Source: Candidatus Limnocylindrales bacterium
GTDB lineage: Bacteria > Chloroflexota > Limnocylindria > Limnocylindrales > CSP1-4
Reading direction: 5' to 3'
Assembly: GCA_035688935.1 (NCBI GenBank)
Contig: DASSMI010000035.1
Coordinates: forward strand, 1-43,278
DNA: 43,278 nt
Part shown: positions 19,999 through 28,651 of the stretch, piece by piece
How positions within the stretch are numbered: the stretch's first letter is position 1
How the letters are laid out: every line of letters begins with the position of its first letter
Notes under the pieces: model-generated
What the model was told of the DNA's origin: nothing
Database searches by the model: none
The model's input: only the letters and a program-made list of their open reading frames with translations
Position numbers and translations under genes: made by a program

Positions 19999-20796
19999 TC
20001 AGGACCGCCCCGCCGGGACCACTGCCGAACGGCCCTCCGCACGGGGCCGTGTGTCGCAACGTCGGCCGGTACCGTCCGGCTCGGCGCGTTCGTCCGTCCC
20101 GCCACGGGTCGGCCGGAGCCGGTCGCCGGCCGCCCATGCGTCCGGATGCTCGGCCTCGAGCCGCACCGCCTCGCCGCGGACGAGGCAGGCGAGGTCCTGG
20201 TACACCGAGCGGATGGCCGGCGTCGTCCGGAGCTGCTCGCGGGCGTCCCGGAGGAACGCCGCGTAGCGCGCCAGCGGCTCGGCCGCGGCGAGCTCGGCCT
20301 CGAAGCCGCGCCGGAGGTCGACGGCGAGCCGCAACCGGCCGAACCAGGCGCCGATCGCTTCGGCGCCCTCGTCGACGCCCTGGGAGTGGCCGCCGCGGCG
20401 GACGATCGGCGCCGGCGAGACGAACCGGACGACGACTGCGTCGCCGACCCGGTCGGCCTCGACCCGGCCACCGAAGGTCAGGTACTCGTTCGTGGCGCCG
20501 AGGCGATCGACGATCCGGATCAGCCCCCACGAGAACGCTTCGGCGAGGGGCGGGCTCGAGTCGCGCGGAAAAGTCCGGCGGCGCCCGTGTCCGTCGGCGG
20601 TGATCCAGTACGTGACCGCCTCGGGATCGAAGTGGCGGAACGTCGGTCGATCGCGGATCGCGACGAGGAGGAGTCCCGGGCCGGGACGGTCGGGAAGGTC
20701 CGCGACCGCCAGGAAGCCGAGCCTCGAGAGGCGATCGGCGGCGACGCCCGGCGTGATCCGGCCGGGAGCGTCCCGGAACGCGATCCTCGGCGGCAC
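19999..20796 (-). CDS. Hypothetical protein (no recognisable domain)
   Basis: 265-aa ORF with balanced composition (W, F, Y, D, E present), co-directional and tightly spaced between the hemerythrin and tandem-USP genes. The C-terminal 40 aa are low complexity, so the true stop and function are uncertain. Confidence 0.5.
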   Translation of the reverse strand: MPPRIAFRDAPGRITPGVAADRLSRLGFLAVADLPDRPGPGLLLVAIRDRPTFRHFDPEAVTYWITADGHGRRRTFPRDSSPPLAEAFSWGLIRIVDRLGATNEYLTFGGRVEADRVGDAVVVRFVSPAPIVRRGGHSQGVDEGAEAIGAWFGRLRLAVDLRRGFEAELAAAEPLARYAAFLRDAREQLRTTPAIRSVYQDLACLVRGEAVRLEAEHPDAWAAGDRLRPTRGGTDERAEPDGTGRRCDTRPRAEGRSAVVPAGRS

Positions 20797-20800
20797 GGCG

Positions 20801-21265
20801 TCAGTCCGATCGGCTCGCGGCCGGCTCGTCGAGGATCGGCAGGAGGAACCGTTCCTCCCGCTCGATGTGGGCGCGGAGGAGCGCCTCCAGCCCGAAGAGG
20901 TGACAGCGGAGCTCGTCGTGCTCGAGAGCCGGAACCTGACGGAGCGACGCTCGATCGGTCCGGATCCGCTCGGTCAGGGACCGGATCTGCTGGTGGTCGA
21001 ACCGCGCCGGCCGGGTCGCCCACGGCGTCCCGACTCGTGCGTCGATCTCGGGGTACAGCCAGCGGTCCTCCCAGACGAGGTGTGGCTCGAGCATCTCATC
21101 GAGCCAGTGGAGGACATCGAGGACGTGGATCGACAGCTCGGGCGCAGCGTCGAAGCCGATCCCGCAGGCGACGTCGTGGATCCGGTTCAGGCCGCGGATC
21201 AGGTCCCGGTGCTCGTGGTCGGCGAACACGCGGGCGGGCTGCAGCTCGTTCATCTGGGTCGTCAT
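20801..21265 (-). CDS. Hemerythrin (HHE cation-binding) domain protein
   Basis: 154-aa ORF. His/Glu ligand spacing is typical of hemerythrin-like domains: FADHEHRDLIRGL..., HVLDVLHWLDEMLEPH...WEDRWLYPEID, LLRAHIEREERFLLP. GGGAG lies 7 nt upstream of the ATG. Confidence 0.85.
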   Translation of the reverse strand: MTTQMNELQPARVFADHEHRDLIRGLNRIHDVACGIGFDAAPELSIHVLDVLHWLDEMLEPHLVWEDRWLYPEIDARVGTPWATRPARFDHQQIRSLTERIRTDRASLRQVPALEHDELRCHLFGLEALLRAHIEREERFLLPILDEPAASRSD

Positions 21266-21411: not shown

Positions 21412-22182
21412 TCAGATCGTCTCGTTGGCGATCCGGACCTGGCGGCCGGTCCAGCTGATAAGACGTCGGAGCTGGTCCCGGTCGAGCCGATCGCAGGCGA
21501 ACGCCCAGTGGATCGACACGACGTCGCCGGGCGCCACATCGCGGACGAACCCGACGCCGTCGCGCCACGCCTCGACGCGTTCCGGGCGCGGCGGTCCGAG
21601 GTGGAGCCGGCCGCCGGAGAGGAGGAGGGGAACGGCGTCGACGACGAGGGACGACCCGTCGCGCTCGAGGACGCGACCCCACCGGATCCGGCAGGCGTCC
21701 ATCACCTCCAGCGCGCGGTCGACGGCGCCCGACCGCATCAGCCCGATCCGAGGGAAGACGTCGAGGACATGGAATGCGTGGACGGGCGCCGCCCCCGCCT
21801 CGGGCTTTCCGGCCAGCCAGCGCCAGCCATCGGGCCGCAGCCGGGGCCGGAACCGATGGGTCAGGGAAGCGCGGAGCGCGTCGGGGGTCACCCGATCCAG
21901 GAGCGAGCTGCCCAGCCAGTACGCCTCGACGACCCGGCGGTCGAGCGGATCGCCGATCCCGTTCGAGCGAGCGATGAGCTCGAGGTACGGCCATGCGCCC
22001 TCGAACCCGGCCGCCAGCGCTCGCAGTGCCGGATCGCCGGTGCCGCTGGTCGCCTCGCCGAGCAGCTCGGCGGCGGCATCGGGGCCGCAATATCCGAGCT
22101 GGTTCGGCGGGAAGGCGTACCGCGCGAACAGGACCGGGCCCGACACCGGCAATGCGGCCGTTGCCCGGGCGGCCTCAGCCAT
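21412..22182 (-). CDS. Conserved-looking uncharacterised protein with HypC/HupF-like C-terminal segment
   Basis: 256 aa from MAEAARATAALPVSGPVLFARYAFPPNQLGYCGPD... ATG 22182 overlaps the EamA stop by 8 nt (ATGGCTGA). The C-terminal segment CRIRWGRVLERDGSSLVVDA...APGDVVSIHWAFACDRLD parallels the neighbouring HypC (MCIGYPGRVIDLDATGATVV...VGDWVTVAAGAIVARLE). Confidence 0.65.
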   Translation of the reverse strand: MAEAARATAALPVSGPVLFARYAFPPNQLGYCGPDAAAELLGEATSGTGDPALRALAAGFEGAWPYLELIARSNGIGDPLDRRVVEAYWLGSSLLDRVTPDALRASLTHRFRPRLRPDGWRWLAGKPEAGAAPVHAFHVLDVFPRIGLMRSGAVDRALEVMDACRIRWGRVLERDGSSLVVDAVPLLLSGGRLHLGPPRPERVEAWRDGVGFVRDVAPGDVVSIHWAFACDRLDRDQLRRLISWTGRQVRIANETI

Positions 22183-23158
22183 CGGATGGCTCAGGGGCGA
22201 GCCGGCGAGCGGTCGCCGATGCGACGCCTCGAGCCGCGGCTCGGGCCCACCCGACGACGAGCACGGATGCAGCCACGATCGCGCCGAACCCGACGAGCGC
22301 GGACCCACTGGGAGCCGTCCCGCTCGTCGCCGCAGACAGGCCGCCCGTCACGACCGCGCCCAGCACCAGGACGCTCGTCACGACCGTCGCCGGCGCGCGG
22401 CGCAGCGCGGCGAACCAGGTTGCGACGTAGCCGGCCAGGATCGCCCCGGTGAGGGCGACCCATGCCCAGCCGGCGGGCGTGACGGCGGCCACTCCGGTGG
22501 CACGTCCGGTGACGACGAGGAACCCGGCGAGCAGGACGACCCCGAGACCCATGCGGAGCGTCGCGAGGACGCCCGTCGGAGTCGTGCCGAGGAGGCGCCG
22601 GACGAGGACGGTCTCGATCGCCCAGAGGAGCGTGGCCGCGAGGATCATCGTCTCGCCCGGACCCCAGACGATCCCCCGCGGCGGGAGGACCAGCGCCTGG
22701 CCGAGGAGCAGACCGGCAAGGCCGACGACCAGGGCGATCCCCGCTCGCTCGCCGAGGACGGGGAGGGCGAGCAGGGCCACCCATAGGACGAGGGTCTTGT
22801 GGATGACGGCGGCGCTCGGCGCGCTCGCCGCGGCCAGGCCGGTGAAGAACAGCACGAACGGCACGCTCCCGCCGACCACACCCACGGCGAGGATCGCGGG
22901 CCAGCGGGCGGCCGGGATCGCGCGGATGCCCGTCATGCCGCGCGGCCCGAGAAGGCCGAGGAGCACGACGGCCGCGACGGCGTTCTTCAGGGTCGTGTAC
23001 ACGGCGGGATCGGGGACCTGGCGCACGGCGAATGCGTTCAGGTAGACCGCGACGCCGCTGACGAGCGCGGCACCGATCGCGAGAGCGATCCCGGCATCGA
23101 GGCTGTCGGGCAGCCAGGGCGGCGACGGTCGGCGAGGAACGACGATCTGGGGGCGCAT
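22175..23158 (-). CDS. EamA/DMT-superfamily permease (about 10 TM)
   Basis: 327 aa from MRPQIVVPRR... It has two repeated 5-TM EamA-like halves and is highly hydrophobic. ATG 23158 shares one nt with the hypC stop (TGATG). Confidence 0.82.
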   Translation of the reverse strand: MRPQIVVPRRPSPPWLPDSLDAGIALAIGAALVSGVAVYLNAFAVRQVPDPAVYTTLKNAVAAVVLLGLLGPRGMTGIRAIPAARWPAILAVGVVGGSVPFVLFFTGLAAASAPSAAVIHKTLVLWVALLALPVLGERAGIALVVGLAGLLLGQALVLPPRGIVWGPGETMILAATLLWAIETVLVRRLLGTTPTGVLATLRMGLGVVLLAGFLVVTGRATGVAAVTPAGWAWVALTGAILAGYVATWFAALRRAPATVVTSVLVLGAVVTGGLSAATSGTAPSGSALVGFGAIVAASVLVVGWARAAARGVASATARRLAPEPSDG

Positions 23159-23433
23159 CAGGGTCTCCTTGGATGAGCGAAGGGCGTTGGTTCCGTGCGT
23201 CTCGTCCCGGCGGCCGCGGCGCGCCGCTCGGCGGCTCGCAGGCGGCGCCGGATCCAGGCGGCATCGGCGGGTTCGAGTCGGGCGACGATCGCACCGGCCG
23301 CGACCGTGACCCAGTCGCCGACCCGGACGTCGGGGACGACGACGGTCGATGCCCGCCGCGTGCGGCCCTCGGTGACGACGGTCGCTCCGGTCGCGTCCAG
23401 GTCGATGACCCGGCCCGGGTACCCGATGCACAT
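23158..23433 (-). CDS. hypC: [NiFe]-hydrogenase assembly chaperone HypC/HupF family
   Basis: 91-aa ORF beginning MCIGYPGRV (canonical N-terminal Cys motif), followed by ...VGDWVTVAAGAIV. Confidence 0.85.
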   Translation of the reverse strand: MCIGYPGRVIDLDATGATVVTEGRTRRASTVVVPDVRVGDWVTVAAGAIVARLEPADAAWIRRRLRAAERRAAAAGTRRTEPTPFAHPRRP

Positions 23434-23436
23434 CGG

Positions 23437-23976
23437 TCAGGTCCGAAGCCGAGCCACGGCGTCGCGAACGGCGTTGACCATCCGCGGGACGGCCCGGGCC
23501 ACGGAAGGGCTGAGGCCCGCGCCGAGCGTGAAGCGGACGCCGCCCACGGCGATGATCCGGCCCTCGAGCGGGCGACCGCGGATCATGTCGGCGACGCCGA
23601 TCACCTCGCGGAACTCGAGGGCATGCGACGACCTGGGCCGGAGCCGGTCCTCGCGTCCGATCATCCCGGTGAGCGGCAGCTCGACGATGTGGCCGCCGCG
23701 CACGCCCGTCGCGGCGTCGACGACGATCACCGCGCCGCCCGGCGGGACGTCGAGCAGGTGATCGACCTCGAGCTGACCGACGACGCGGATCCGGGCACCG
23801 GCCGGCAGCGACCGCTCCAATGCCTCCGCGACGACCAGCCCGACCGCATCGTCGCCGCGGTCCGGCGATCCGCAGGCGAAGATCTCCACCCCGATCGGTC
23901 GTGCTCCGGCGAGACCTTGCCCGGACCGGGAACGGGTGACGTGGGGATCGACGGGGGCACGGGCGACGGGCGTCAT
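23437..23976 (-). CDS. Hydrogenase maturation endopeptidase (HybD/HyaD/FrhD-like)
   Basis: 179 aa from MTPVARAP... Motifs are CGSPDRGDDAVG, AVIVVDAA and SSHALEF. ATG 23976 shares one nt with the large-subunit stop. A later start is possible. Confidence 0.8.
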   Translation of the reverse strand: MTPVARAPVDPHVTRSRSGQGLAGARPIGVEIFACGSPDRGDDAVGLVVAEALERSLPAGARIRVVGQLEVDHLLDVPPGGAVIVVDAATGVRGGHIVELPLTGMIGREDRLRPRSSHALEFREVIGVADMIRGRPLEGRIIAVGGVRFTLGAGLSPSVARAVPRMVNAVRDAVARLRT

Positions 23977-25349
23977 CAGGACACCTCCTCCAGCGTGAGA
24001 TCGAGGAAGTGGGTGGCACAGCTGATGCACGGGTCGTAGCTGCGGATCAGCTGCTCGAGCCGGAGAACCGCCTCGGCGCGCGGCAGGCCGAGCACGGATG
24101 GAGCGAACGCGGCCAGGTCGGCTTCGATCGCCGCCTGGTTCTGGCTCGTGGGCGGCACGATCCGCGCGCTCGCGACGAGTCCTCGGTCGTCGAGCTCGTA
24201 GGCGTGGAAGATCAGGCCGCGTGGCGCCTCCGTCGCCCAGGCTGCGGTCGCCGGGCCGGCGGACCACGGCACGCGGGCGTCCGCGGCGGGTGCCCAGGTC
24301 TCGACGAGGTCGATCGCCTCGGCCACGGCGTCGACGATCTCGATCGCCCGGGCGACGACGCTCCGATAGGGGTTGGTCGCGATCTCCGTCGCGAGGCCGG
24401 TCCGCGTCAGCGCCGCCGCGGCCAGCGGATGGAGCCGGTCGCCGGCGAGCGCCAGCCGGCTCGAGGGACCCAGCAGGTAGGCCCGGCCATCGAGGTCGCG
24501 CGCCTGGAGCGCATGGGACCACGGCACCTGGGTCTCGGCGAAGGCCGAGGTCCACGCGGTCGGCGGAATGTCGAGCCCGGCCGTCGACACGATCCGGCCC
24601 TCGTTCATGGGGTACTCGGTCGGATGCCGGAGCGCCACGAGCGGCCCGGATCGGGTGAACGCCGGCGTCGGCAGATCGGCGACGAGATCGACGGTCCGCT
24701 CGGCGATCCGGAGGGCCGTCTCGAGCGGCTCGCGGAGGGCCCGGATCTCCGATCGTCGGAACGTCCGGGAGAAGCCACCGACGCGGACCGAGACCGGATG
24801 GATCGCCCGGCCACCGATGACCTCGACGATCCGGTTGCCCGTCTTCTTCAGCGCGAGCCCGGCTTCCACGGCGTCGCGCCGGTCGCGGGCGAGCTCGAGG
24901 GCGCTCGGGTAGCCCAGGAAGTCGGGGAGGTGCAGCAGGTAGACGTGGAGCGCGTGGCTCTCGATCCACTCGCCGCAGTACAGCAGACGTCGGAGGGCGC
25001 GGACGGCGGGATCGATCGTGATCCCGAGCCCCGCCTCGAAGGCGTGGACCGCGGTCACCTGGTAGGCGACCGGGCAGATGCCGCAGATCCTCGCGACGAT
25101 GTCGACCACCTCGTCGGGCCGGCGTCCGACCACGAGCTGCTCGAAGTACCGAGGCGCCTCGAAGATCTGGAGGTGGGCCTCTTCGACCTGTCCGTCACGA
25201 ACGCGCAGACGGAGGGATCCCTCGCCCTCGACCCGCGTCAGTCCCGCCACGTCGACCGTCAGGTCGCCGGGCGCCGAGCCGCCGAGCCCGGAGCCGCCGA
25301 GCCCCGAGCCGCCGAGCCCCGAGCCGCCGGTTCCGTCGAGGTCATGCAT
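23976..25349 (-). CDS. [NiFe]-hydrogenase large (alpha) subunit, group 3 (3b-like)
   Basis: 457 aa from MHDLDG... The N-terminal Ni-Fe ligands are RICGICPVAY and the C-terminal ligands are DPCISCATH. A 10-aa tail (FLDLTLEEVS) follows, suitable for endopeptidase cleavage. ATG 25349 overlaps the small-subunit stop by 8 nt (ATGCATGA). Confidence 0.93.
   Translation of the reverse strand: MHDLDGTGGSGLGGSGLGGSGLGGSAPGDLTVDVAGLTRVEGEGSLRLRVRDGQVEEAHLQIFEAPRYFEQLVVGRRPDEVVDIVARICGICPVAYQVTAVHAFEAGLGITIDPAVRALRRLLYCGEWIESHALHVYLLHLPDFLGYPSALELARDRRDAVEAGLALKKTGNRIVEVIGGRAIHPVSVRVGGFSRTFRRSEIRALREPLETALRIAERTVDLVADLPTPAFTRSGPLVALRHPTEYPMNEGRIVSTAGLDIPPTAWTSAFAETQVPWSHALQARDLDGRAYLLGPSSRLALAGDRLHPLAAAALTRTGLATEIATNPYRSVVARAIEIVDAVAEAIDLVETWAPAADARVPWSAGPATAAWATEAPRGLIFHAYELDDRGLVASARIVPPTSQNQAAIEADLAAFAPSVLGLPRAEAVLRLEQLIRSYDPCISCATHFLDLTLEEVS
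25275..25328 (-). repeat. 15-nt tandem repeat (about 3.6 copies) encoding (GGSGL)n at the N-terminus of the hydrogenase large subunit
   Basis: The minus strand reads ggcggctcggggctc twice, then ggcggctccgggctc, then ggcggctcg. This translates to GGSGLGGSGLGGSGLGGS (residues 8-25). Confidence 0.9.
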
Positions 25350-26202
25350 CGGTCGAGCCCTCGCCCGCCACCGGCGCGCCCGGAGGACCGCCGTAGGTGT
25401 CGATCGCCGCCCGGAACGGTGCCGACCAGGCCGTGAACCCGGCGAACAGTCGGGCGACGTCGGCCGGGGAGCCGCGCTCGAACCAGGCCGCGAGCGACGC
25501 GGCATTCGCCGATTCGCGCGGGCCGAAGCAGCCGTAGCAGCCGCGGCCGTACGCCGGACAGATCGCGCCGCAGCCCGTCCGCGTCACCGGGCCGAGACAC
25601 GGGATGGACCCGGCCACCGTGACGCAGACGACGCCGCGCCGCTTGCACTCGAGGCAGACGGCCTCGTCGGGCAGCTGCGGGCGCCGACCGGTGAGCAGCG
25701 CGGTGAGGAGCTCCCGGAGCTGGTCCGGCGCGATGGGGCAGCCACGCAGCTCGCCATCGACGGCCACGAAGTCGGAGACGGGCCGCGCCTGCGCCAGCGA
25801 CTCGATGAACGCCGGCCGCGGGTAGACCGCGGCCCGGATCTCGTCGTGGTCGCGCCAGTTCCGGAGCGCCTGGATCCCGCCCGCGGTCGCGCACGCCCCG
25901 ATCGTGATCAGGCGGTGGGAGACGGCGCGCAGACGGAGGAGCTCCTCGACCTGGTCCGGCGTGCTGACCGACCCTTCGACGAGCAGGACGTCGAACGGAC
26001 CGGCCGATCGACGCGACGTCGCCTCGGCGAACTCGACGATGTCGACCCGATCGGCGATCGCGAGCAGCTCGTCCTCCAGATCGAGGAGCGTCAGCTGGCA
26101 GCCGTCGCACGACGCGAGCTTCACGACGCCGATCCGCGGCCTCGTGGGCACCGCGGATCGCGGACGCGGGGTTCGGACGACGGTCGCGGACGCCGTCATC
26201 AC
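25342..26202 (-). CDS. [NiFe]-hydrogenase small (delta) subunit, group 3 type, no Tat signal
   Basis: 286-aa ORF. Motifs are KLASCDGCQLTLLD, GACATAGGIQ, CLECKRRGVVC and GCGAICPAYGRGCYGC. The start is GTG 26202 or ATG 26199 (GTGATG), and either overlaps the stop of the upstream gene. Confidence 0.9.
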   Translation of the reverse strand: MMTASATVVRTPRPRSAVPTRPRIGVVKLASCDGCQLTLLDLEDELLAIADRVDIVEFAEATSRRSAGPFDVLLVEGSVSTPDQVEELLRLRAVSHRLITIGACATAGGIQALRNWRDHDEIRAAVYPRPAFIESLAQARPVSDFVAVDGELRGCPIAPDQLRELLTALLTGRRPQLPDEAVCLECKRRGVVCVTVAGSIPCLGPVTRTGCGAICPAYGRGCYGCFGPRESANAASLAAWFERGSPADVARLFAGFTAWSAPFRAAIDTYGGPPGAPVAGEGSTDA

Positions 26203-28175
26203 AACCCCTCCACCATGAACGCGTCGCCCAGCTCGGCCAGGGAGAAGACCGGCCCGTCACGACAGACGAAGAAGGGACCGAGCTGGCAGTGGCCACACGT
26301 GCCGACCCCGCAGGCCATGTTCCTCTCGAGGGTCACCCACGTCCGATCCCGCGCGACGCCCAGGCGCTCCAGCGCGGCGGCCGTCGCTCGCATCATCCGC
26401 TCCGGGCCGCAGACGAACGCCGTCACCCGGCTGCCGTCCCACGCCGCCTGATCGAAGAGCTGGGTGACCACGCCGATCCGCCCGAGCCAGTCGCCGCCGG
26501 CGCGATCCACGATCTCGGCGATCTCCAGGTCGGCCCGACCGCCGAGCGCCGACAGCTCGTCGACGAAGAGCCGGTCGGCGGGGCTCCGCGCTCCCAGGTA
26601 CAGCCGCACGGCGCCGAACCGCGGTCGCTCGGCGAGGATCGAATCGAGGACCGGCCGGAGCGGCGCGAGACCGATCCCGCCCGCGACGATCACGACGTCG
26701 CGACCGCGCGCGGTCGAGATCGGCCAGCCGCGGCCGAGCGGGCCCCGGACGGCGACCTCGGTGCCGAGCGGGAGGTCGATCAGGCGAGCCGTCGCGGGGC
26801 CCGCCGCGCGGATCGTGAGCTCGAGGCCGTCGGGCCGGATCCGCGAGATGGAGATGGGCGGAGCCGCGAAGGCCGGCTGCTCGACGAGGACGAACTGGCC
26901 GGGCGCCGCGGCGAGGATCGCCGGGTCGGTGATCGCGAGGCCGATCGTCGCCGTGTCCGCCGTTTCGCGCGCGAACGAGCGGATCCGGGCGATCGCTCGC
27001 ACCGGGGGCGGCGTGGTCCCGATCTCGGGCGCCCGCCCCGACCCGGGCGACGCGGGCCACGGCGGTGGTCCGCTGGGCAGCCCGATCGGGGCGACCGCCG
27101 CGAGCTCCTCCCGCACGTCGATCGCGACCGGGCACCACGCGATGCAGCGCCCGCATCCCACGCAGCCGCTCATCCCGAACTGGTCCCACCAGGTCGCGAA
27201 CTTGTGCGTCATCCATTGCCGGTAGCGGTCGGCGACCGCGGGCCGGAAGCTCGCGTCGCCGGCGACGCGGGCGAATCCCGAGCTGAAGCAGCTGTCCCAC
27301 CGCCGCTCGGTCGTTCCCTCGATCCCGTCGAGGTCCGAGGCCACCGCCACGCTCGTGCAGAAGCAGGTTGGGCAGACGAGCGTGCAGTTGGCGCAGGCGA
27401 GGCAGCGGTCCGCGATCGCCGCCCAGCGCGGCGAGTCGAGGGCGTTCCGGAGCCGGTCGGGCAGGCCCTCGGCCGCGACCGGATCACCGATCGCCTCACG
27501 GACGGCGCGGACCTGGGCGGCCGCCGCAGCCGTCTCGGCCTCGGTCGCCGGACGAAGGTCCAGCGCCTCGACGATCGAGGCACCGGCCGCGCTGCCCGAC
27601 CGGACGAGGAACCCACCGGCGATCTCGGCCATCGCGATGTCGGCGCCGTCGCTGACCTCCGGACCGGCCTCCATCGACGTGCAGAAGCAGGTGTCCGTGG
27701 CCCGCGCGCATTCGACCGCGACGATCAGGCTCGCGGCGCGGCGGGCGACGTGGTCGGCATCGCCCAACGGTCCCGCCCGCATGACGCGCTCCTGGATCCG
27801 CAGCGCCGCGATCTCGCAGGCACGGACGCCGACGAACGCGAGGCGGGGCGGGGACCCGGCGGCCGCTTCGACGCGAAGCGAGTCGTCCTCGCGCCGGAAC
27901 CGCGCCCCCGGCACGGCCGGTGGGTGGGTGAACCGCTTCCAGGCGGTCACGCCGAGGCCATAGTCGAATGCCCGCGCCGGATCGCCATCACCGAGTCGAA
28001 CGCGGCCGGGCGCGGATTCGACCACGCGGCCCCACGGCAGATCCGCCGCTCCGTCGAGCTCCTCGTAGACGATCGCACCGTCACCAACGGTCGGGCCGAT
28101 GATCCGTCGCCCGTCTGCGGCGAGCGCGTCGAAGAGCGTGTCGAGCTCCGCGACGGGCAGGAAGCGATCGGTCAT
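26199..28175 (-). CDS. Fused hydrogenase beta-gamma subunit (AsrA-like 4Fe-4S domain + AsrB/FNR-like FAD/NAD(P)/2Fe-2S domain)
   Basis: 658 aa from MTDRFLPVAELD... The N-terminal half has CLACANCTLVCPTCFC and CVGCGRCIAWCP. A Pro-rich linker follows (GLPSGPPPWPASPGSGRAPEIGTTPPP). The C-terminal half has PPISISR, VIVAGGIGLAPL and CGVGTCGHCQLGPFFVCRDGPVF. ATG 28175 overlaps the stop of the cNMP gene (ATGA). Confidence 0.88.
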   Translation of the reverse strand: MTDRFLPVAELDTLFDALAADGRRIIGPTVGDGAIVYEELDGAADLPWGRVVESAPGRVRLGDGDPARAFDYGLGVTAWKRFTHPPAVPGARFRREDDSLRVEAAAGSPPRLAFVGVRACEIAALRIQERVMRAGPLGDADHVARRAASLIVAVECARATDTCFCTSMEAGPEVSDGADIAMAEIAGGFLVRSGSAAGASIVEALDLRPATEAETAAAAAQVRAVREAIGDPVAAEGLPDRLRNALDSPRWAAIADRCLACANCTLVCPTCFCTSVAVASDLDGIEGTTERRWDSCFSSGFARVAGDASFRPAVADRYRQWMTHKFATWWDQFGMSGCVGCGRCIAWCPVAIDVREELAAVAPIGLPSGPPPWPASPGSGRAPEIGTTPPPVRAIARIRSFARETADTATIGLAITDPAILAAAPGQFVLVEQPAFAAPPISISRIRPDGLELTIRAAGPATARLIDLPLGTEVAVRGPLGRGWPISTARGRDVVIVAGGIGLAPLRPVLDSILAERPRFGAVRLYLGARSPADRLFVDELSALGGRADLEIAEIVDRAGGDWLGRIGVVTQLFDQAAWDGSRVTAFVCGPERMMRATAAALERLGVARDRTWVTLERNMACGVGTCGHCQLGPFFVCRDGPVFSLAELGDAFMVEGL

Positions 28176-28651
28176 CGGCGGGACTCCGCTCCGCTGCCGT
28201 ACAGGTCGAGGAGCTGGAGGCGCGTCGTGGCGAGTCGCCGCGCGACGCAGGCCAGCAGCTGGCGATAGACCGCCGCGGCGAGCTCGGGGTCGGCTTCGAG
28301 CGCCGCGCACAGGCCGAACGCCTCGAACAGGATCGCCCGGCATGGGGTGGCGGCGACGCACGTGGAGCTGGCGGGCGTCCCGGGAAGGGCTGCCGACCAA
28401 CCGAAGACGTCGCCGCGATCGATCGTCAGGATCGTCCTGGGGTGGCTCGGCGGGATGCCCAGTCGCAGCGCGACTCGGCCGTCGAGGACGATTCCCATCG
28501 CCTCGCACGGCTGCCCCTCGCGGATCACGACGGTCCCTTCCCGGAGCTGGACGACGGTGCCGACCGCCGCCAGCCGGGCGCGAGCGGTGACGGGGAGGTT
28601 CGCGCCGAACCAGGTCTCGCCGAGCAGCGACGTCAGCGTCGAGGTCTCCAT
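28172..28651 (-). CDS. Stand-alone cyclic-nucleotide-binding (CAP effector-type) domain protein, no HTH
   Basis: 159 aa from METSTLTSLLGETWFG... The beta-roll pattern is VQLREGTVVIREGQPCEAMGIVLDGRVAL...ILTIDRGDVFGWSAAL...ATTRLQLLDLY. It is the first gene of the hydrogenase string. Confidence 0.8.
   Translation of the reverse strand: METSTLTSLLGETWFGANLPVTARARLAAVGTVVQLREGTVVIREGQPCEAMGIVLDGRVALRLGIPPSHPRTILTIDRGDVFGWSAALPGTPASSTCVAATPCRAILFEAFGLCAALEADPELAAAVYRQLLACVARRLATTRLQLLDLYGSGAESRR

Follow-up and report, generated by a model that had tools for sequence, protein, structure and literature searches.

Maturation of [NiFe] hydrogenases is held to require six Hyp proteins, among which HypD, HypE and HypF are thought essential, and where the metal and the CO ligand come from is only partly settled. 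A contig of Candidatus Limnocylindrales bacterium (Chloroflexota; GCA_035688935.1, DASSMI010000035.1, positions 1 to 43,278, the whole of this 43-kb stretch being referred to here as the window) carries a hydrogenase gene string that runs from HypC into an EamA/DMT permease and then into a gene for a protein of 256 amino acids (aa), and it raises the question of what these last two genes contribute to a [NiFe] enzyme. An earlier note on the sequence had suggested that both act in hydrogenase biogenesis, the permease by moving a metal or a cofactor precursor and the 256-aa protein as a second, atypical chaperone. Our analysis confirmed the observation behind that note and partly supported its interpretation: we read the 256-aa protein, a member of the DUF6390 family, as a new accessory protein of [NiFe] hydrogenases that derives from HypC and is coupled to a transporter. 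The genes and domains at the centre of this reading are the following.

23158..23433, minus strand: HypC, 91 aa, starting MCIGYPGRV (PF01455, E = 1.4e-15)
22175..23158, minus strand: EamA/DMT permease, 327 aa (PF00892 in two stretches, E = 2.5e-23)
21412..22182, minus strand: DUF6390-family gene, 256 aa plus stop (PF19927, E = 1.5e-84)
21691..22182, minus strand: helical N-terminal domain of the 256-aa protein, residues 1-164 (helices 15-164 in the structural model)
21415..21693, minus strand: HypC-type oligonucleotide/oligosaccharide-binding (OB) barrel and terminal helix of the 256-aa protein, residues 164-256 (Foldseek, hhalign)

The three genes are chained on the minus strand as previously described. 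The HypC stop and the EamA ATG share one base (TGATG), and the EamA stop is overlapped by 8 nt by the ATG of the 256-aa gene (ATGGCTGA), so that the permease is translationally coupled to both of its neighbours.

A DUF6390 protein with a HypC-type domain

The 256-aa protein scored 283.7 bits with PF19927 (DUF6390), for which the gathering cut-off is 25, and its residues 14-255 align with positions 4-240 of the 244 in the model. It is a stand-alone member of a family that is already catalogued, with a function that is not described; the label 'unknown' that it had received before thus applies to its function and not to its family. A full scan returned 1263 representatives of DUF6390 at 50% identity, which is to say at least that many clusters, and a search with a single short sequence pattern, its matches checked by tblastn, put relatives in at least 441 species genomes.

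The AlphaFold2 model of the protein, built with a 76-sequence alignment, had a predicted local distance difference test score (pLDDT) of 94.4 and a predicted TM score (pTM) of 0.92, and comprises helices in residues 15-164, barrel strands in residues 167-233 and a last helix in residues 235-252. The comparison with HypC structures that the earlier note had proposed gave an OB barrel with HypC on top: the best Foldseek match in the PDB was 2z1c_B, HypC of Thermococcus kodakarensis (E = 3e-3, probability 1.0, TM 0.67), and the matches ranked just under it were mostly ribosomal S17-type OB folds, none of them convincing. A DUF6390 profile run against all PDB sequences retrieved three matches only, every one of them a HypC. 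Alignment of DUF6390 with 20 HypC sequences by hhalign (probability 95.3%, E = 2.4e-8) placed Cys164 onto Cys2 of HypC and His225 onto the position of the conserved HypC His, the surrounding motif GDVVSIHW being the counterpart of the HypC core GDxVLVHxG. One DUF6390 protein (locus L049) was matched directly by a HypC model; for the 256-aa protein itself neither PF01455 nor TIGR00074 gave a match at E <= 0.01, and the relationship to HypC is visible by profile-profile and fold searches only. These comparisons indicate that the likeness to HypC which the note had suspected from the letters is no chance motif: the last ~90 residues of the protein form a genuine OB domain of the HypC type, in which the Cys is internal.

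Set beside HypC, HybG and HupF (PF01455, TIGR00074; structures 2z1c, 3vyr and 3d3r), DUF6390 shares the OB barrel with its trailing helix, a Cys immediately ahead of the first strand, a GDxVxxH motif with its His, a location in hydrogenase clusters and detectable homology. It differs in that its Cys lies within the chain, at residue 164, whereas that of HypC is the processed N-terminus; in the 160-residue helical domain in front, which adds further invariant Cys/His; in being unmatched by the Pfam HypC model; and in having transporters as partners and occurring fused to DNA-binding domains, neither of which, to our knowledge, is known for HypC. The 256-aa protein shares a HypC-related domain yet is outside the HypC family, because its Cys lies within the chain, it gives no match to the curated models and two thirds of it are something else.

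That remainder, the N-terminal helical domain, carries a PPNxLGYCGP loop and the start of a helix reading HxFHV. Foldseek against the PDB yielded no credible match for it, and on the model it appears to be a previously undescribed domain, without a named relative in Pfam or a solved one in the PDB, in agreement with the note, which could put no name to it. We ruled out a shrunken HypD as its origin both by Foldseek and by hhalign, in which the 256-aa protein had no similarity to HypD (probability 0.07%). DUF6390 does resemble HypD, the Fe-S scaffold partner of HypC, in occupying a slot near HypC and in having a conserved Cys that could face a HypC-type Cys; it differs from HypD in lacking sequence similarity, the GPGCPVC and GFETT motifs and the Fe-S cluster cysteines, no Fe-S cluster motif being present in DUF6390, and it coexists with a real HypD on two plasmids. 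One member of the family (L077, about 2472) reads YCGSHDH at the invariant Cys32 and so matches the CGxHxH of HypD, a single case that is probably due to chance.

Across 76 diverse members P26, C32, G33, F60, C164 and H225 were invariant, and all six are present in the window protein; H135, H138 and C230 were at least 90% conserved. We infer that Cys32, His135 (with His138), Cys164 and His225 (with Cys230), contributed by both domains, form one ligand site, and the ligand of this putative site is most likely a metal ion.

Distribution of DUF6390 beside [NiFe] hydrogenases

The survey of genomic context took in 80 loci at species level, drawn from Chloroflexota, Actinomycetota, Dormibacterota and other groups. 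In 75 of them the sequence reached far enough to show the immediate upstream neighbour of DUF6390, which was EamA in 60; HypC was found no more than 1.6 kb from DUF6390 in 62 of the 80, and a [NiFe] large subunit was encoded within the locus in 53 of the 80. Within the genus to which the window belongs (25 genomes), a large subunit was present in 9 genomes, DUF6390 in 11 and neither in 14, and all nine genomes with a large subunit also had DUF6390 (Fisher p = 2.7e-5). The association is with at least three types of hydrogenase: group 3b in most loci, a TAT (twin-arginine translocation)-exported group 1 enzyme in L011 and a 1h-like cluster in Ca. Dormiibacter, with further types on two plasmids of cultured bacteria. 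Co-occurrence thus spans Chloroflexota, Actinomycetota, Dormibacterota, Bacillota and Patescibacteria as well as several hydrogenase classes, and the link of both genes to [NiFe] hydrogenases, argued in the note from their tight coupling, holds far beyond the window. On the two plasmids, which carry full hypFCDE clusters, DUF6390 immediately follows hypD or hypE. These plasmid-borne hydrogenase-plus-hyp clusters belong to Mycobacterium intracellulare subsp. chimaera (L084, NZ_CP012886.2), where the cluster adjoins RuBisCO genes, and to Sulfobacillus acidophilus (L085, CP003180.1).

The permease of the window has about 10 membrane segments in a hydropathy scan and two EamA repeats (PF00892), and it matched no curated NCBIfam equivalog. 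Its conserved polar residues are N41, K58, N59, E137, R138, E182 and R202. EamA of E. coli, an exporter of cysteine and O-acetylserine, is a carrier of the same EamA/DMT type and resembles the window permease in its two repeats and about 10 membrane helices; the sub-family in the window differs from it in being tied to DUF6390 and hydrogenases and in being sometimes fused to DUF6390.

Two further sets of genes recur near the module. About 100 nt downstream of HypC-EamA-DUF6390 in L018 (10884-14031) lie an ArsR-type regulator, two DsrE-like proteins, TusA and an SQR-like flavoprotein, a sulfur-trafficking set that has no counterpart in the window and is found in about 22 loci (L009, L011, L012, L015, L016, L019, L021, L023-L027, L030-L036 and L038). 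Downstream genes in L018 and L011 that were HypD/HypE/HypF-like by size proved to encode ArsR, DsrE, TusA, the SQR-like protein and MMPL. Orphan HypC-EamA-DUF6390 units, hydrogenase-free within 10 kb, are immediately preceded by an 861-aa gene that was identified as a P-type cation ATPase; this P2-type enzyme is seen in L021 (6051-8633) and in six other loci.

Fusions to the permease and to DNA-binding domains

The pairing of EamA with DUF6390 is closer than adjacency. In L002 the pair has stayed intact although it lies 6 kb away from the hydrogenase, and in Patescibacteria the two are a single polypeptide (10 clusters, identity down to 41%), which together suggest that EamA and DUF6390 work together. 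One such fusion, from Parcubacteria (L094, 10001-11680), is convergent with a minimal pair of [NiFe] large and small subunits, and no other Hyp gene was found within 10 kb of it.

Longer members of the family carry DNA-binding domains, of the GntR, PadR, Xre or ArsR type at the N-terminus and of the MarR type at the C-terminus. GntR-DUF6390 proteins form eight clusters with identity down to 61%, the PadR-DUF6390 cluster has 15 members, and the MarR cluster has 17, one of which occurs in 41 indexed blocks of the contig collection; the fusions to helix-turn-helix (HTH) domains are recurrent architectures rather than artefacts. All of them retain C32, H135, C164 and H225. At one locus (L090, 1852-7641) PadR-DUF6390 heads an ATP-binding cassette (ABC) operon that is directly followed by a 1h-type hydrogenase, and the best matches of this operon were NikA for the binding protein (149 bits) and a nickel permease for the first permease (220 bits). 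GntR-DUF6390 follows HypC and heads a second ABC importer near a hydrogenase in L086 (7210-11893), and in L092 (10001-11236) DUF6390-MarR follows HypC within a hydrogenase cluster that resembles that of the M. intracellulare plasmid.

A domain that has been adopted independently by five regulator families is normally a ligand-binding sensor. The five HTH families fused to DUF6390 and its place at the head of importer operons indicate a ligand-sensing role, and the genes controlled by the HTH-DUF6390 regulators would here be importers serving [NiFe] enzymes. The nearest known arrangement is that of NikR and NikABCDE, the nickel-responsive repressor and the nickel importer of E. coli: at the PadR-DUF6390 locus, too, a putative metal-binding domain is joined to a DNA-binding domain at a Nik-like, hydrogenase-serving ABC operon. 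The folds are unrelated, NikR being a ribbon-helix-helix protein with an ACT-like domain, and the DUF6390 protein of the window differs further in having no DNA-binding domain; nickel binding by DUF6390 is a prediction.

A HypC without its histidine and the apparently missing HypD, HypE and HypF

The HypC encoded next to the module in the window keeps its N-terminal Met-Cys, but at the position of the conserved His it reads Ala (GDWVTVAAGA). It scored 57.6 bits with PF01455 and 44.2 bits with TIGR00074, the latter just below the cut-off of 48. The same loss was seen in all of the roughly 39 Limnocylindria-type loci with HypC beside the module (these genes are located in the window, L001-L041 and L058), where Ala, Gly, Ser or Glu stands instead; HypC of the actinomycetotal and dormibacterotal loci retains the His.

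Neither Pfam scans of the open reading frames nor tblastn with HypA/B/D/E/F from the two plasmids found HypA, HypB, HypD, HypE or HypF in the window, as the note had stated. The note had proposed a search for the standard set in the rest of the genome. HypD was not found in 41 genomes, namely the window's own, 24 congeners and 16 of the same order, and HypE and HypF were represented only by paralogue fragments in the 11 of 11 genus genomes that carry DUF6390 or the enzyme. These weak paralogue matches show that the search was effective in high-GC genomes. Among the carriers, one genome reaches 92% completeness in 7 contigs, and a single locus would escape detection in all nine hydrogenase genomes through incompleteness alone with a probability of about 2e-6. 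The neighbourhood of DUF6390 out to 10 kb, taken over 83 loci, contained no HypD, HypE or HypF; regular expressions for HypD motifs, run over all loci, gave chance CGxHxH matches only, and GPGCPVC and GFETT were absent from the window. A 767-aa gene of Pedococcus considered as HypF is a glycosyltransferase, and a Chloroflexi preprint had nothing on maturation genes in Limnocylindria. The hyp genes could be hidden on replicons left unbinned in the metagenome-assembled genomes (MAGs).

That no HypD, HypE or HypF was detected and that the HypC lacks its His keep alive a route that involves DUF6390 and is independent of the three proteins. Under such a proposal, which we regard as doubtful, Limnocylindria would build NiFe(CN)2CO without HypD, HypE and HypF, from a kit of His-less HypC, DUF6390, DMT permease and protease in which DUF6390 supplies the HypC/HypD-type Cys/His iron site. 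Patescibacteria may do likewise, since there fused EamA-DUF6390 genes lie beside minimal hydrogenases.

Other genes of the hydrogenase string

The remaining genes of the string, and the one that follows the DUF6390 gene, are listed here in the order of transcription.

28172..28651, minus strand: cyclic nucleotide monophosphate (cNMP)-binding protein, first gene of the string (PF00027, E = 2.9e-13; same slot in L001 and L002)
26199..28172, minus strand: beta/gamma diaphorase fusion subunit, 4Fe-4S and FAD/NAD-binding (Fer4_22, NAD_binding_1, DHODB_Fe-S_bind)
25342..26202, minus strand: small subunit of the hydrogenase (PF01058)
23976..25349, minus strand: [NiFe] hydrogenase large subunit, group 3b type (PF00374 and motifs)
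about 23437..23976, minus strand: divergent hydrogenase maturation endopeptidase (weak HycI match, GSPDRGDD motif)
20801..21265, minus strand: hemerythrin-domain protein, downstream of the DUF6390 gene (PF01814)

Read from its sequence, the large subunit retains RICGIC and DPCISCATH, with a 10-residue C-terminal tail. The gene named as an endopeptidase in the note fits that role by its position, which is the same in L001 and other loci, and by its GSPDRGDD motif; its match to HycI is weak (E = 0.0028, 17.9 bits, under the cut-off of 23). The one-base TGATG overlap of stop and start occurs at three junctions of the string on the minus strand (window 28172, 23976 and 23158), those of the cNMP protein with the diaphorase, of the large subunit with the protease and of HypC with EamA, and 8-nt overlaps occur at two further junctions.

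Downstream of DUF6390, the hemerythrin gene and a gene for a 265-aa protein without a family match occupy 19999-21265 of the window (minus strand). The pair follows DUF6390 in L001, L006, L007 and L022, and rearranged copies are present in L031-L036. The hemerythrin is a variable companion, found by tblastn in only about a quarter of the related loci, and both genes are outside the core unit. The remainder of the window holds respiratory, signalling and fermentative genes.

A candidate role in hydrogenase assembly

Hydrogenase clusters typically carry dedicated nickel systems. We consider it reasonably probable that DUF6390 and EamA are a transporter-coupled Cys/His module, for sensing or hand-over, that serves the assembly of [NiFe] hydrogenases, the ligand probably being a metal and nickel the favoured one. 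DUF6390 would be a cytoplasmic two-domain protein, its helical domain packed on the HypC-derived OB barrel, that binds its ligand at a Cys/His site made from both domains. The permease may carry, in whichever direction, the species that DUF6390 binds, or may be gated by DUF6390; the stand-alone DUF6390 protein may in turn hand that species towards HypC and the large subunit, as a chaperone, or report its level, as a sensor. Together the two would supply or meter something for the metal centre of the hydrogenase. The chaperone of the note is therefore one option here, and the HTH fusions and importer operons point at least as strongly to ligand sensing. As to the ligand, nickel or a nickel chelate would come first, on account of the Nik-like operon, the nickel systems usual in hydrogenase clusters and the Cys/His chemistry; iron would come second, on account of the HypC ancestry of DUF6390.

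Several points weigh against this reading. None of the conserved residues of the permease is a His, Cys or Met, so that a bare metal ion is not an obvious substrate for it, and its conserved residues look more like those of a DMT carrier for organic substrates than those of a metal channel; of the metal or cofactor precursor suggested in the note, the bare ion thus fits poorly, and the cargo may be a chelate or an organic ligand. The Nik-like matches are well under the curated cut-offs. The GntR-linked ABC importer, considered as an iron system, was not assignable, its best matches being of the PhnS2 type and far under the cut-offs. The literature that we searched made no mention of DUF6390. 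Finally, a sensor or nickel role explains neither the missing HypD, HypE and HypF in the genus nor the loss of the His from the adjoining HypC.

It is these last two features on which a different account would build, in which DUF6390 is an iron scaffold, a one-chain stand-in for HypC-HypD that would join the protease, the permease and the His-less HypC in building or carrying the Fe(CN)2CO unit where HypD, HypE and HypF are missing. HypD is missing from all 41 genomes searched, nine of the genus among them having a hydrogenase; HypE and HypF occur only as paralogue fragments in 11 of 11; incompleteness alone is most unlikely (about 2e-6) to conceal one locus throughout the nine hydrogenase genomes; none of the three is encoded within 10 kb in the 83 loci; and Cys164 and His225 stand at the iron-relevant Cys and His positions of HypC, next to a HypC that has lost its own His in roughly 39 Limnocylindria-type loci. 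Yet DUF6390 adjoins hypD or hypE in the full hypFCDE clusters of the M. intracellulare and S. acidophilus plasmids, its recurrent fusions to DNA-binding domains suit a sensor and not a scaffold, it has neither similarity to HypD nor an Fe-S cluster motif, and no component of the module is plausible as a maker of cyanide. A separate replicon could, moreover, be missed systematically by MAG binning. On this evidence we judge a scaffold to be quite improbable.

Sensing could also be the whole of the function, with DUF6390 a purely regulatory sensor of a non-metal signal, such as the organic substrate of the permease, the redox state or the unprocessed large subunit, which would bind via the HypC-like face; the stand-alone form would then gate EamA without any hand-over. 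The fusion of the domain to five unrelated HTH families and to the cytoplasmic end of EamA would agree with this, as would the likeness of the conserved EamA residues to those of a metabolite carrier and the ArsR-type regulator gene that follows the module in about 22 loci. We nevertheless think a non-metal signal rather unlikely, given that an invariant Cys/Cys/His set with additional His and Cys residues is characteristic of metal sites, that one regulated importer best matches nickel systems and that the almost exclusive association with [NiFe] enzymes and HypC points to the metal centre. That the EamA and DUF6390 genes are mere passengers, adjacent to hydrogenases by chance or co-transfer and with no role in them, is scarcely credible: about 15 loci with >=8 kb of upstream sequence do have HypC-EamA-DUF6390 and no large subunit in the locus, and one genome (G017) has its large subunit and DUF6390 on different contigs, but the co-occurrence extends across five phyla and several hydrogenase classes, the hydrogenase and DUF6390 match significantly in their occurrence within the genus and DUF6390 is homologous to HypC.

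Implications

A widespread HypC-derived family that is linked to hydrogenases and transporters, and that has been reused as the sensing domain of several families of regulators, is a new candidate player in the biology of [NiFe] enzymes. If hydrogenase-bearing Limnocylindria really lack HypD, HypE and HypF, the textbook maturation pathway would not be universal, which would bear on the way hydrogen metabolism is inferred from soil metagenomes, on the heterologous production of hydrogenases and on how the cofactor is built in minimal cells.

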